A stretch of 64,000 bases of DNA from Stylophora pistillata. Lineage: Eukaryota. Each line of letters opens with the position of its first letter. Position 1 is the stretch's first letter. The notes beneath the pieces are model-generated. The model was not told where the DNA came from. It was given only the letters and a program-made list of their open reading frames with translations, and did not search any database. Where the stretch lies: positions 478,265-542,264 of the forward strand of contig NW_019217919.1 of the NCBI RefSeq assembly GCF_002571385.2, given 5' to 3'. Positions 661 through 12,401 of the stretch are shown piece after piece. The translations under genes were made by a program, and so were the position numbers.

Positions 661-2175
661 TGTTTTGAGATAAAAGTGCAGTAATTTTGCTCAAAATCAG
701 TATCTGCCTTTAAATTCAGGCTAAGCATACAGTATAGTTTAATTGTGGGAATATTTATTTCTTTGGACGGCTCTGTATCTGGAGGAAGTTCAGAGTAGGC
801 CTCGAATTATTGAAGAAAAGCATAGGGAAAGAGTGGAAAAGCCGTGTTTCTAAAACCGGTGCGGTTGAAAAAATCCGCGAAAAGAAGACATTTTTCAACA
901 TTGGACTATATAATGGAGTGCGATTACAACGTATGAGGTTTAAAGGTTAGAAGAGGAAAGAAGCTGGCCATGAAAATATCGCCTTCGATAACGTATTCTG
1001 TTTTACAAAAAGATGCCAAGGAGAGATGGAGGATCTTTCACCGTAACTTGTACAACACGGAGTAAACCTACCATTTGTTGTATAAAGATGGTGGTCAATC
1101 TGTTTTTCTACCTGGCTCTCAAACAGAGCTGTTTACACTGAGGCTTTACCAAGAAGAAGTTGGAAAGGATTTCAAAAGGATAACTCTATTTCTTTGTGCT
1201 GATCTTGATTTTAAAAAATCCCAAGGACGTTTTGAAAGCAGTGATTCCTCAGAAGAGTTTGAAGTTGACAAAAACGTTGCTTCTAATGAGATGCCTTATA
1301 GTGCCTGTAAAGCAGATTGAAGGCCCCGGCAGGAGAAAAAAGTCATCGATGCCCAAATTGCCTTGGATCAAGAAATGGTTTCAGATCTACAATAGCTCTA
1401 TGACGCAGAAGATTACCAGGGTATATCTTACATACCCAATGATGGTGCTGAAGACACGAAAGGCGACAGGTTTTCCATATTGGAAGAGATATCAAAATAA
1501 AATGCTTGGATCAGAAACGCCTTACAGCTAGTGACATGGAACTGATAAAATCCATCAGAGAAAACTTGAGTAGCCATCATGATACCATTATTGATTTCGA
1601 TTACATGGGAAAAATTGACGCAGCCCATATGGAGGAAATTATCAACTCAGTTATCATCAGAATTCTGATGAAAAGGGTGGTTTTCTTGAAAGAATTAATG
1701 GATGGTCTTAGCCCTTTCGCGTTGCAGACGCCATCAGGAACGAACTAGAACCATTTAAGTCTTTGTTTACTAGAGAACTTGGAACAATCCCAACATGTAG
1801 TCCATGCCAACTGCCTAGTGCTCCGACCAGAGTACTCCCCAAAGGGCAGTTCAAGAAGACAGGTGGAGGAGGCTATGATGGACTGCTTTCAGGATTTTGT
1901 GTACAGGATGGAATATCAGCGTTCCCGGCGTGCAACTCTGGAAGTACGTAGACGATATTACAATCTCTGAGTGTATGGCAAAGAACCATAGGCGTACGGG
2001 CCGGGGGGGTGGGGAGGGGCTGCAGCCCCCCCCCCCAAATTTTGGGCAACTCAGATGTTTTGGGCAGCACGAGAAATTTGGGAAAGCTAGTTTTTAAAGA
2101 AGCTTGCATGTGTCTGTGTATGTTTTTTTTTTCGAAGAGATATTTTCTGTTTCAACCTGAAGTGGGCGTTGTAAA

Positions 2176-2274
2176 TAGGCTCGATTTCCACCGTCTCCCG
2201 GGTCCTTGATCTTCCCCTTCGGGGGAGATGAGTGCGGGCTCATTTTCCCGAACAGCGGCTGGTAATCGAACCTA
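2176..2274. mobile_element. ~100-bp MITE inside the hAT
   Basis: TIRs TAGGCTCGATT / AATCGAACCTA, with the direct repeat GTTGTAAA on both flanks. Confidence 0.55.
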
Positions 2275-3581
2275 GGTTGTAAAGCCAGTTAAATTCACTT
2301 GAGACAGTGGTTACCCAGCACGTGATCACTTTCTGGCTATTTTTCAAGGGGATCATATGTTGATATACATATTTGTAATTTTGTTGTAGTTGGGCACTGT
2401 GCTGCACTGCACTAGTTAGTGTAGTGAATTTCCAGTCGTGAATTAATTAGAGTCAATTTTGGCATAACTCTCTACAATCATATTGTACATTATCCACTGG
2501 TGACCCTCAGAAGATCTGGGTCACGTGCTCGGCAACCACTGTCTCGTGTGAATTTAACTGGTTCACGCCCGTAGTTTTTAAAAAATTTACGCGGCAGTGG
2601 AAACAAATACGCACCTTACATAATTTTGTTTTTTGTGTAAAACTCGCCTTTAAGCCATAATAGACGTGTCGAGTCCAGCTCCACAAAAACGTAAGCGAGC
2701 CTATCGTCATCGCGTTACCTGTTCCGAATGTAAAAAAGACATCGCTGCTGAGTACCAAGACGCTCATGCAAGAACCAAGCATATAGGCAAAAGAGTTAAA
2801 TTTACTGTTTCTCGTGCGCCAAATCAATCGCAACTAGGTTTCACCGGCGGCGATGAAACAATAAATATGCTTAAATTCAGTAAAATCGACGCCGAAGACG
2901 TTGGTTCAGATCTTCAGAATGACAACAATACAGATCTAGTGGATTCATTAGATACTGCTCCAGATAAGTCAGATATCGAGATGATTTAAGTGAATAATGG
3001 TGTTCGGCGTGCTCCGGCTACGTCAGAATTTATGGATGTCGATGTAACAGATGAGTCAGAAATCATGGCTAAAGGTAATTCGGATAAGATATTCTTCCTT
3101 GGACACAAATCTATATAGTGGTACTTGCCAAAAGTCCGGTGATATAGACGAGGGCCCTCAGCAACCTATCTTGAAGTGCTACGACCAAAATTTTCGGCAA
3201 TGAATCTTTTTCAAGAGATTTCAATCCAGCGTGGTACAAACGTTATCTATGGCTGAGCTACAACTGTGAAACAAATACAGCGTGCTGTTACACATGCCAG
3301 AAATACTTAAATGTCCACGATTTCACGTTTGACAATCTGAAGAAGATAGAGCGTCTCACTAAACACCACAAGAGTCAGAACCATCAAACGGCCATAGCGA
3401 AATGGACTGATAGCAGAGCAAAAAAAAAAAAAGAAAAATACTTCAATACTGAGCAGACTCGAGGAATTACACAAACAATATGTGAAGGAAAATCGCGACT
3501 ACTTGAAAGTTATCACTGAATATCTCATGTTCACGGCCCAACAGAACATCGCCCAACGGGGCCACGGTGAACAACGTGATA

Positions 3582-9689: not shown

Positions 9690-9875
9690 GCTACAGCAGA
9701 AATTGTCATTTAAGAATGCAATTTCTTTGCAAGACCAAGAACAAATACGTAATGCGCGATATTGAAATGTACAATGTCATGTGCAATCAGTGTTTGAACG
9801 GTACGTGAGTTGATTTTATTTTGCCGCGAGTTGGATTTGTTTTTCCGTGAGTTGATTAAATTTTGCCGTGAGTTA

Positions 9876-11212
9876 ACAAACAAAAAACAAAACAAAACTT
9901 TCTTATTCTGATTACAGACATACATAATTGAAAATTCTTATTACAAAAATACATGATTAAAATGGTTTGCCCCGCAAATAGTTAAGAAGCTAGTCGCGGC
10001 GGGGCAAAACAAGAACGTGATTAAAATAACAAGTTATGAAAGAATAATTAACAATTGGTTCATGCTTTAGCGTGCACTATCGAGTTATGGAGCGCGCGGG
10101 AAGTTTGGAGAGCTCGAAAGAAGCGTAAGAGTTGCCCGAGGCGATAGCCGAGGGCAACTCTAGCTTCTTGAGTGCTCTCCAAACTTCCCACGTGCTCCAT
10201 AACTCGATAGTGCACAGCTGAAAGCATGAACCAATTGTTTTAGAACATAGCCGGTGGAATTGTGCATCAAATGCGACGCGAAAAACGGACAACAATATCA
10301 GTTGAAGCGAATCGTGACGGCGCTGATGCCGAGTCTCCTTTTCCTTTGTTTTTCTCTTTTTCTGCCTCATTTAAGAACTCTAGCCCATTGGAAAAGGTCG
10401 AAACATTGTCTTCGTTTTCGGACCAGCAGGCCGAGTTTCTGTTTGTATCCATTATTGTCGCGAAATGTATTATTTTTCCCCGCACTAGCAATGGCCGCTC
10501 GCGCGAAAAAAAAATTTCTGGCAAAGTCGGATTTGCTGACGCTATCAGCGTGCACTATCGGGATTTTGAGCACGCTCACGTATAATGAATTTAATTGCGC
10601 GACTCTGCTAGCTATGTTCTAATAATAAATAAGGCAAACCTATGTTAATTGAAAAAAAACCTTGCAGATTTCAACTAGAGATAAATAAAACACAGAAGCG
10701 GGAGATCAAATTAACACAGCACTTACGGACGATGTATAAAGGCAAGGAGTTGTAAAAGGAAAACAGACGTAAAAATGGGACCCTCAACGCGCGTTTCTAT
10801 GATCCTACATTTTTAATAATCGTGGGGATTTCAATATACTCATCCTACTTTACCAATACATCAAGTAACAATTTGCAGAGATCTTTTTTGAAAGCTTTCT
10901 TTGGGAGATTGGTTATGTGGCTTGGTATCCCATTCCACAGTTTAACTCCGAGCCGAGAAAAAAGAGTTGTTTTGTATTTCAAGTCTAGAATATTTAACAT
11001 AAAACTTGCCAGACGTAGAAGATCGTGTATTGTATGAGTGGATATTAGACGCTTTCTGAAATAAATTTAACATGTTTGCTGGGGCTTTACAATTATTGAT
11101 ATCCTGCATTATGGTTGATACGGACTCATAGTAAAGAAAAGTTATTGGAAGCACGTTAGCTTCGAAAAAAAAAGGAATTGCATGGTCATGCCATTCGGCA
11201 AAGCATAATAAA
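9876..11212 (-). mobile_element. 3' fragment of a CR1/L2-group LINE with nested MITEs
   Basis: ORF LPITFLYYESVSTIMQDINNCKAPANMLNLF..SNIHSYNTRSSTSGKFYVKYSRLE is typical of the post-RT C-terminus. A (TTTTG)n tail lies near 9880. Confidence 0.7.
10050..10621. mobile_element. Palindromic ~190-bp hairpin element plus adjoining inverted-repeat module (Crypton-like non-autonomous?)
   Basis: 10050-10239 is self-complementary (AACAATTGGTTCATGCTT...AAGCATGAACCAATTGTT). 10241-10621 is bounded by TAGAACATAGC / GCTATGTTCTA. Confidence 0.6.
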
Positions 11213-12401
11213 CGAGTTGGACTTGTTTTGCCACGAGTTGATTTTATTTTGCCGTGAATTATTCTAAATTGCCGTGAGTTGATTTCATTGTGCCGTGAGT
11301 TATTATATTTTGCCCTGAGTTGGATTTGTTTCGCCGTGAATTGATTTTATTTTGCCTCACGGCGTTTTATTTTAAGTAAAATGATTTTAATTTGACTTGC
11401 ACTTATGGGCCACCGTAGAAGTCGGAGTCCATAAAACGCAAAAAAAGAACTCGGCTTATAATAAATTGATTATATAGCAAAAAGATTTCGCCTTACTAAG
11501 AATCAAGGATGAATTTATTATTTCGAGAGCCGGGAAAGAAAGCCAAATGTGTTTGTAGTACATTGAACCCAAAAGTCCTCCGCACTTTTTGTCTTGCGCG
11601 GGATCAATACGAGCAATCCCGAGAAGGCCAGATGGGCCGCGCATGGATAGCCAATCAAGACACAGGGCCGGATTCGCTTCATATTGCGCACGGATACTGC
11701 CAGCGGTATAATAAATAAAAAAAATATGCTGTTAAATGCACTTGATAAAAGAAATATTTGTTTATTGGGCTCAGAAAAAGCTTGTCAAAGGAGAATTAAA
11801 CACAGGAATAGGTTAGAGACTTCCTTGGCACTTTACCATAAATTTACTACAAAGTGAGCCACAAAGCTACTTGTTGGACAAAAAATATGGCGCGATTACA
11901 ACCATGTTTTTATTACACTGACGCCTTCTCAGTTGTTTGAAAAATATCTGTACAGGACAAGACATACGGCTGATATGCAATTAACCACTGATATAGGTAG
12001 GATACGAGTCATTTCATTCTCCATGATTGGCACATTTGATATGATAATTACACCATTTATACAGTCAATTCCCTCATAGTTGGCATTATGTTATTACTTG
12101 ATCAGGGAGAAGACTTATCTGGTACTCCTTTCCTTTTGTTGCTCCAGCCACTGAGCCAGAGTTTACTTTCTTGTGAGAGCTTACTAGGGGAGAGACCTTT
12201 ATAGGGTAGAGGGGGGGGATCGGTACATAAAATCCTCAGGTGATCAAGACATCTCTTCAGGAACCACTTCCTTGATGCAGATCTTCAAGAGGTTGGAAAC
12301 TTATTTGAGTCATTCAATAGGAACTTATCCTGAACATATCCAGATAAGAAGTTGATTGTACAAATATGATGTGCTTCAATATGCTTCAATTTTCCTTCAA
12401 C

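Follow-up and report, generated by a model that had tools for sequence, protein, structure and literature searches.

The locus studied here raises the question whether a DNA transposon of the IS3EU/GingerRoot type carries, as its second gene, a HECT E3 ubiquitin ligase. It lies in a 64,000-nucleotide stretch of the coral Stylophora pistillata (contig NW_019217919.1, positions 478,265 to 542,264; G000:C136:478265-542264 in our numbering), hereafter called the window, and was compared with the whole 398-Mb assembly. An initial annotation, made from the letters of the window, had described an integrase pseudogene and a HECT-like pseudogene lying tail to tail inside one IS3EU-like element. The window element is a dead IS3EU/GingerRoot remnant, the wreck of a genuine element of a genuine two-gene type, and we are highly confident of its identity and anatomy, that is, an IS3EU element with a convergent second gene encoding a HECT-fold protein. 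The right terminus was found as first described, ending in CCGTA at 11417, followed by GAAGTC and preceded by a 21-bp array (11226-11356, plus an inner piece at 9804-9874), and so was the gene pair, in which remnants of a transposase (minus strand, c. 8786-9776) and of a HECT gene (plus strand, 810-7144) lie tail to tail. The span from about 900 to 7144 originally attributed to the HECT gene does contain it, but is mostly inserted DNA. Nine fragments of the two genes and the piece at 9561-9773 gave no HECT or integrase match in Pfam, and their identity was established because intact relatives match them.

One intact relative (L036) holds a 669-codon open reading frame (ORF) on the plus strand, encoding the protein P0001, and a convergent transposase ORF which adjoins the right terminal inverted repeat (TIR). 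The right end of the intact copy of this family was recovered in the assembly, and the left one was not resolved there. The intact transposase matched the Pfam family rva_4 with an E value of 5e-29, and its Asp-Asp-Glu (DDE) triad was conserved at D157 (75/75 aligned sequences), D216 (74/75) and E250 (74/75), in an alignment made of the query and 74 of the 120 sequences listed out of 1469 matches. Comparison by eye with two rows of a published supplement, IS3EU-1_DR and IS3EU-1_CGi (PMC10045372), showed that the motifs WHxDGYDKLKP, IDGFS and NQRIE recur in the transposase P0002. The transposase has a first exon coding for a zinc ribbon, joined in frame across a GT-AG intron of 337 bases; contigs of polyA RNA contained the splice joint in two studies, and those of two other runs examined lacked it. 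The L036 family is young, since a second insertion with a different flank is 97.9% identical over 1173 bases. A Stylophora pistillata protein at NCBI is 100% identical over 83% of an intact relative.

The two genes were found together within paired ends in the relatives. Termini of the TAYGG..CCRTA type were recovered at both ends of 14 of them, ten being two-gene elements of 2.6-7.9 kb, in which the 6-bp duplication was perfect (four), carried one mismatch (four) or two mismatches (one), or was absent (one); in the four one-gene elements with both ends the duplication showed 0, 1, 4 and 4 mismatches. These ends, the duplications and the rva_4 match support the IS3EU membership originally proposed, and the second gene of these relatives encodes a HECT-fold protein that moves with the transposase inside paired TIRs and 6-bp duplications. 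That both genes lie inside paired ends thus holds for the relatives, but the left TIR and duplication of the window copy are absent, an inverted 21-bp array just ahead of the window being all that survives of its left end, and the one-element origin of its two genes is therefore drawn from those relatives.

HECT homologues did not occur mainly apart from integrase and TIRs, which was the outcome that the initial annotation had set against its own proposal. HECT-seeded searches yielded 46 loci, 39 of which were fetched, and a convergent transposase lay within 10 kb in 22 of the 39, the window locus included; one further locus had a transposase piece upstream and 16 had none in the DNA examined. 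Five of these 16 adjoin an IS3EU end and three are truncated pieces of one family, each led by a short interspersed nuclear element (SINE). A second tally started from 83 Pfam-HECT matches, which were sorted by eye into 18 loci with several exons and 28 matches standing alone. A transposase was present within about 7 kb of 15 of the 28 isolated matches, convergent in all 15, and near none of the 16 multi-exon host HECT loci that were fetched. Among the 13 isolated matches without transposase, eight are related to element-linked ligases, several of them being flanked by runs of N or by little sequence, and five are not. Conversely, a convergent HECT piece was seen at 18 of the 26 best transposase loci.

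The second protein is probably an active HECT E3 ligase, as judged from its predicted fold and conserved residues. By sequence P0001 matched E6AP weakly (E 0.009) and by profile HUWE1 (E 3e-5); its Atlas feature score against HECT clusters was 0.97, and the proteins of sister elements (C20, C385, C597, C219 and C139) as well as the homologues P0047 and P0110 passed the PF00632 cut-off weakly. An AlphaFold model built on 87 sequences (P0001 and 86 of its 108 matches) reached a mean predicted local distance difference test score (pLDDT) of 82. Residues 254-666 of this model align to the HECT domains of Rsp5 and UBR5 with a Z score of 18.7 over 332-337 residues (root-mean-square deviation 4.6-4.9); the top 18 rows of the structural alignment are all HECT, with both lobes covered, and every row listed by Foldseek is a HECT ligase (best E 2e-10). 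Among filled rows, 62 of 63 have Cys635, in the catalytic column (24 rows are gapped there), and 56 of 59 have Phe666 (28 gapped). Cys635 also aligns with the AHTC motif of the sister elements that pass the Pfam cut-off. Ahead of it, residues 616-628 of P0001 include conserved His, Cys, His and Cys, a possible zinc site which is absent from the AHTC-type sisters. Residues 275-669 gave three Atlas feature matches at 0.93 to a Basidiomycota cluster, perhaps ligases of fungal elements.

The N-terminal module with the motif LLYKDG..GKDFKRITLFLC, located at 1066-1200 of the window, is indeed present; called uncharacterized at the outset, it now models as a beta-grasp (ubiquitin-like) domain without a clear best family. 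Modelled alone, this domain reached a pLDDT of 85 and was aligned by VIA-align to ubiquitin-like folds at Z scores of 7-9, the best being 9.1 with many ties; Foldseek returned nothing at E 0.001, the best row being the Ring1B C-terminal domain at E 0.006. Several ligase homologues begin with a zinc ribbon. The predicted layout of the ligase is thus an optional zinc ribbon, the beta-grasp domain, an acidic linker and the HECT domain. Cellular G2E3 combines PHD-like fingers with a HECT domain; the initial annotation had suggested that many coral genes annotated as "G2E3-like" may be such cargo, and the name G2E3 was absent among the names listed for 108 and 54 homologues, most rows being nameless and the names shortened.

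Our reading is that the second gene is likely kept as a ligase that helps the element to move, most probably through ubiquitination of the element's own transposase complex, and we put its probability at about 0.5. The chance that the transposase is the main substrate is about even. Each gene reads inward from one element end, as seen in intact relatives. The transposase would cut at the TAYGG ends and insert with a 6-bp duplication, by the cutting and insertion chemistry general to DDE enzymes. The ligase would accept ubiquitin on its conserved Cys from an E2 of the host and might hand it over to the transposase, which would thereby be remodelled or cleared once insertion is complete. A bolder version, which we regard as doubtful, is that animal IS3EU are two-component transposons in which promoters and first exons located in the inverted ends co-express transposase and ligase, some families sharing a zinc-ribbon tag, so that any swapped-in HECT domain would target its own transposase. 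If this were true, many of the "HECT genes" that have a single exon in corals, fish, echinoderms and insects would belong to transposons.

Trees were compared for 22 of the 36 two-gene elements, those with enough coverage. Ligase and transposase had the same nearest neighbor in 14 of the 22, and the overall correlation was positive (Mantel rho 0.33, p 0.003). Both kinds of protein can start with one and the same type of zinc ribbon, whose exon is found 230-500 bases inside the end, next to the ligase in some elements and next to the transposase in others. In one family, the two ends carry a near-identical zinc-ribbon exon together with the DNA ahead of it (92% over 420 bases); ribbons at both ends were seen in two of 11 scanned two-gene elements, both of this family, and, when two copies were taken together, in a second family, which has different ribbons on its two sides. 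A universal twin zinc-ribbon exon was ruled out, the feature being family-specific. The transposase is ranked slightly ahead of a host silencing factor as substrate because of the co-divergence at the tips of the trees and the shared exon.

Within families, the ratio of nonsynonymous to synonymous rates (dN/dS) was 0.37-1.2 for the ligase (0.7 or more in four of six pairs) and 0.28-1.4 for the transposase (six informative pairs); the ligase gene thus decays neutrally in the copies, which are not kept by the host. Between six family pairs, the proportion of differing synonymous sites (pS) of the ligase was 0.72-0.83 and that of nonsynonymous sites (pN) 0.25-0.39, with a pN of 0.19-0.33 and saturated silent sites for the transposase; these values come from local alignments under a 45% identity filter, which lowers pN. 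A gene under selection in the course of transposition, rather than by the host, would be expected to evolve neutrally within families and under constraint between them, as seen here, which suggests that the ligase may be such a gene.

Several observations weigh against our reading. P0001 had no match to the Pfam HECT domain (PF00632) at E 0.01, and it is only 12-19% identical to solved HECT structures. Eight of the 26 best transposase loci lack a HECT gene, one of them having perfect ends and duplication, and most two-gene elements carry a zinc ribbon on one side or none. The GAAGTC duplication and left TIR that had been predicted upstream of the window copy were not found in 20 kb, where the best match had 6 mismatches in 18 bases. 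In rust fungi, the part of the report available describes IS3EU elements with an alpha-kinase and a TET gene instead of a HECT gene (PMC12730594). The transposase tree also rejects a clade made of one ligase type (approximately unbiased test, p-AU 2e-35, on a quick tree and for a group named after both trees had been seen). Ligases have therefore been swapped between distant transposases, with at least one deep swap, and such swapping agrees with a host substrate at least equally well.

The swapping of ligase types between distant transposase clades leads to the alternative to which we give real, if lesser, credence, namely an active ligase directed at a silencing or restriction factor of the host, the enzyme acting in counter-defence by degrading the repressor of the element. 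Its N-terminal parts vary between ligase types, as expected of substrate adaptors, transposase-only elements exist, and fungal IS3EU carry TET dioxygenases for which an escape from methylation silencing was proposed in the portion of the report available (PMC12730594). Yet the trees agree at their tips and correlate overall, and the zinc-ribbon exon common to both genes in some families points to the partner gene; the Ring1B row, found among many ubiquitin-like folds, brings no support for a host target. A complex prediction of transposase residues 22-371 with ligase residues 20-669, made without alignments and without folded controls, scored 0.09 and carries no weight in either direction.

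We consider it improbable that the HECT gene is passive or non-catalytic cargo, either a host gene captured once or more or a structural partner devoid of ligase activity. The strong divergence from canonical HECT sequences would fit such cargo, as would the 17 of 39 HECT-seeded loci and 13 of 28 isolated Pfam matches without convergent transposase in the DNA examined, but among these loci five adjoin an IS3EU end and three are truncated pieces of one family, and eight of the 13 isolated matches are relatives of element-linked ligases. Moreover, the catalytic Cys and terminal Phe are conserved, the convergent layout is fixed across families, and pN stays at 0.25-0.39 between families while silent sites are saturated. 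Very improbable, in our view, is a chance neighborhood of separate remnants, in which the two pseudogenes and the end of the window would never have formed one element. The missing left TIR and duplication speak for it, and the inverted 21-bp array located 584 to 204 bases before the first base of the window may not belong to this copy because the same array also occurs in short non-coding elements. However, this array stands about 1 kb ahead of the HECT start, order, strands and spacing agree with complete relatives, and transposase remnants are too rare to be expected there by chance (451 candidates across the 398 Mb and none at the 16 control loci).

Other candidates for the left end of the window copy were examined. 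TACGGTGG at position 544 was rejected, as it lies inside an unrelated high-copy repeat and has only 8 bases in common with the right end; the segment 263-564, which recurs near two other ends and was considered element-internal, proved to be a separate repeat. The exact 14-mer of the predicted left end has one genomic occurrence, on another contig and in another family, and no first-exon remnant was found on the left side of this copy. An intact single-exon galactosyltransferase ORF (L011:7454-8578), 2.5-1.4 kb ahead of the window, sets a left bound for the element.

The features of the window copy are listed in the table. Its HECT gene has a deletion of about 120 codons near 1490, at the start of the N-lobe (residues 259-379 of P0022 are unmatched), and Ser in the catalytic Cys column. 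We take the element inserted at 1914-6674 to be a long interspersed nuclear element (LINE) from its reverse transcriptase motifs, and the minus-strand 3' remnant within the right array is presumably a LINE as well. The hAT remnant nested in the former matched Dimer_Tnp_hAT weakly, below cut-off (E 0.004). The inverted arms 6590-6674 and 7207-7291 are 96% identical. The transposase pseudogene retains a decayed zinc ribbon, the helix-turn-helix region, the first catalytic Asp and a C-terminal part (9105-8798); most of the DDE core is deleted, so that of the triad only the first Asp is kept. The hairpin element in the right array is a high-copy repeat with inverted arms, and a joint skipping 10044-10620 was found. 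No RNA contig covered the two genes in two polyA runs, contigs showing presence and not absence; contigs of a probable DNA run cover most of both genes.

Table. Features of the window copy and its insertions, in window coordinates.
Feature	Position	Strand	Basis or remark
High-copy repeat, unrelated	1-560		Between left 21-bp array and HECT gene; 61 matches genome-wide, 344 candidates
(ACAT)n microsatellite	578-653		Tandem repeat
HECT gene, 5' part: basic helix, beta-grasp, acidic linker; stops and frameshift	810-1497	+	48-50% identity to P0021-P0023 residues c. 22-258; fold from intact relative
HECT gene, second half of N-lobe and start of C-lobe	1488-1913	+	55% identity to P0022 residues 380-522
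Presumed LINE remnant in HECT gene, left edge approximate	1914-6674	+	Reverse transcriptase-like frame resumes past hAT; PF09004 match 5911-6423, E 7e-10
hAT remnant nested in the presumed LINE	1987-5836	+	14-bp inverted ends, perfect 8-bp duplication CAAAGAAC
SINE inside hAT remnant	c. 3582-3949		Joint skipping 3582-3949
Masked stretch	6675-6839		Interrupts HECT gene
HECT gene, C-lobe to stop	6840-7144	+	64-66% identity to P0021/P0022; terminal GQAF motif retained
Insertions between the genes	7186-7675		Inverted copy of presumed LINE tail 7207-7291; small high-copy element with 32-bp repeats
IS3EU transposase pseudogene	8786-9776	-	40-60% identity to P0212/P0218 pieces; tblastn match to intact relative
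Inverted 120-bp piece of transposase core	9133-9252	+	P0212 residues 153-183 on opposite strand, E 9e-4
Inner part of right 21-bp array	9792-9875		Inverted/tandem repeat analysis
Insertions splitting right array, about 1.3 kb	9876-11198		Hairpin element c. 10045-10620; presumed LINE 3' remnant (minus strand)
Outer right array and TIR ending CCGTA	11199-11417		71 related matches in genome
Flank GAAGTC, candidate target duplication	11418-11423	+	Partner copy not found

Additional observations were made on the relatives. Identical 5' ligase pieces start at the same tRNA-like SINE in L070 (C670:44297-46360), L071 (C499:83733-84554), L072 (C150:43745-44406) and L036:554-940; their upstream flanks differ and two of the C670, C499 and C150 pieces end in N runs. 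They are probably assembly joins through the SINE, SINE-linked duplication being the alternative, and for that reason the three pieces do not count as independent support. Most of the ligase ORF is repeated in tandem at 99.3% identity (L035:8696 to L036:552, C370:266695-268551); this copy, bounded by single Ns, is an allele or an assembly duplicate. The element at L115:4153-8793 (C20:963556-968577) is compact (5 kb), its ORFs of 538 and 645 codons are both open, its 270-bp ends are 96% alike and its termini read TATGGGG. In L108 (C194:445322-450703), the transposase piece lies upstream of the HECT gene and back to back with it, unlike the usual convergent layout. An ORF for a SAP-SWIM-YqaJ nuclease, probably of a nested element, interrupts the HECT gene of the IS3EU copy in L048:655-2619 (C344:225654-227618). 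A frequent repeat ending in TACGGTGGCCAATT was seen in L072, L095, L014 and others, commonly as two copies placed back to back some 90 bases from each other; it has the IS3EU end in common and its flanks are different.

In the portions of the literature available, IS3EU is a poorly characterized group with TA..TA ends and 6-bp duplications (PMC10045372, PMC6839031, PMC12730594, PMC11934779, PMC10853768, PMC8232023, PMC5753468, PMC5638112), described as encoding two proteins (PMC8232023, PMC10853768). The word HECT had no occurrence in the accessible text of PMC10045372, PMC6839031, PMC8232023 and PMC10853768, nor was it mentioned in the available text or supplement of PMC12730594. Our search recovered no paper pairing IS3EU or another DNA transposon with a HECT ligase, so that the association is apparently undescribed in the literature searched; the 2019 IS3EU review and the Repbase reports lay outside its scope and may name the second protein. 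Papers listed for HECT or G2E3 together with transposon terms were, by their titles, on other subjects, except for a sculpin paper that gives no more than a hint, in the part available, since unclassified amplified repeats match G2E3 by blastx there.

The second protein of a poorly studied transposon superfamily hereby gets an identity, and about half of the isolated Pfam-HECT matches of this genome (15/28) are transposon genes, by which counts of host E3 ligases are inflated. If our reading is true, a transposon equipped with a stand-alone E3 ligase would have a novel means of controlling its enzyme or of disarming its host. Since this genome contains a young, transcribed family in which neither gene is broken, a clear test is within reach.

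Compared with cellular HECT E3s (Rsp5/Nedd4, UBR5, HECTD3, E6AP and HUWE1), the element ligase has both lobes, the N-lobe GExGxDxG motif, the position of the catalytic Cys and the terminal Phe, a residue with a known role in HECT ligases. It differs from them by its low identity, by a HECT part encoded in one exon, by the extra conserved Cys and His ahead of the catalytic Cys in one subgroup, and by its location inside TIRs in many decaying copies. IS3EU/GingerRoot elements of Repbase, as far as the available texts describe them, have the same TA..TA ends, 6-bp duplications, integrase-like DDE transposase and two proteins; those texts leave the second protein unnamed, whereas the coral elements encode a beta-grasp domain and a HECT domain. 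The TET-positive IS3EU of rust fungi have TAYGG..CCRTA ends, 6-bp duplications and, like the coral elements, a gene for a protein-modifying enzyme opposite the transposase, which is an alpha-kinase with the TET/JBP gene lying in between in the part of the report available (PMC12730594). Zisupton transposons with an F-box domain are likewise DNA transposons encoding a module of the ubiquitin system, but in the available account they belong to another superfamily and have an adaptor domain within an isoform of a transposon protein (PMC12062965), whereas the coral IS3EU elements carry a stand-alone ligase gene.

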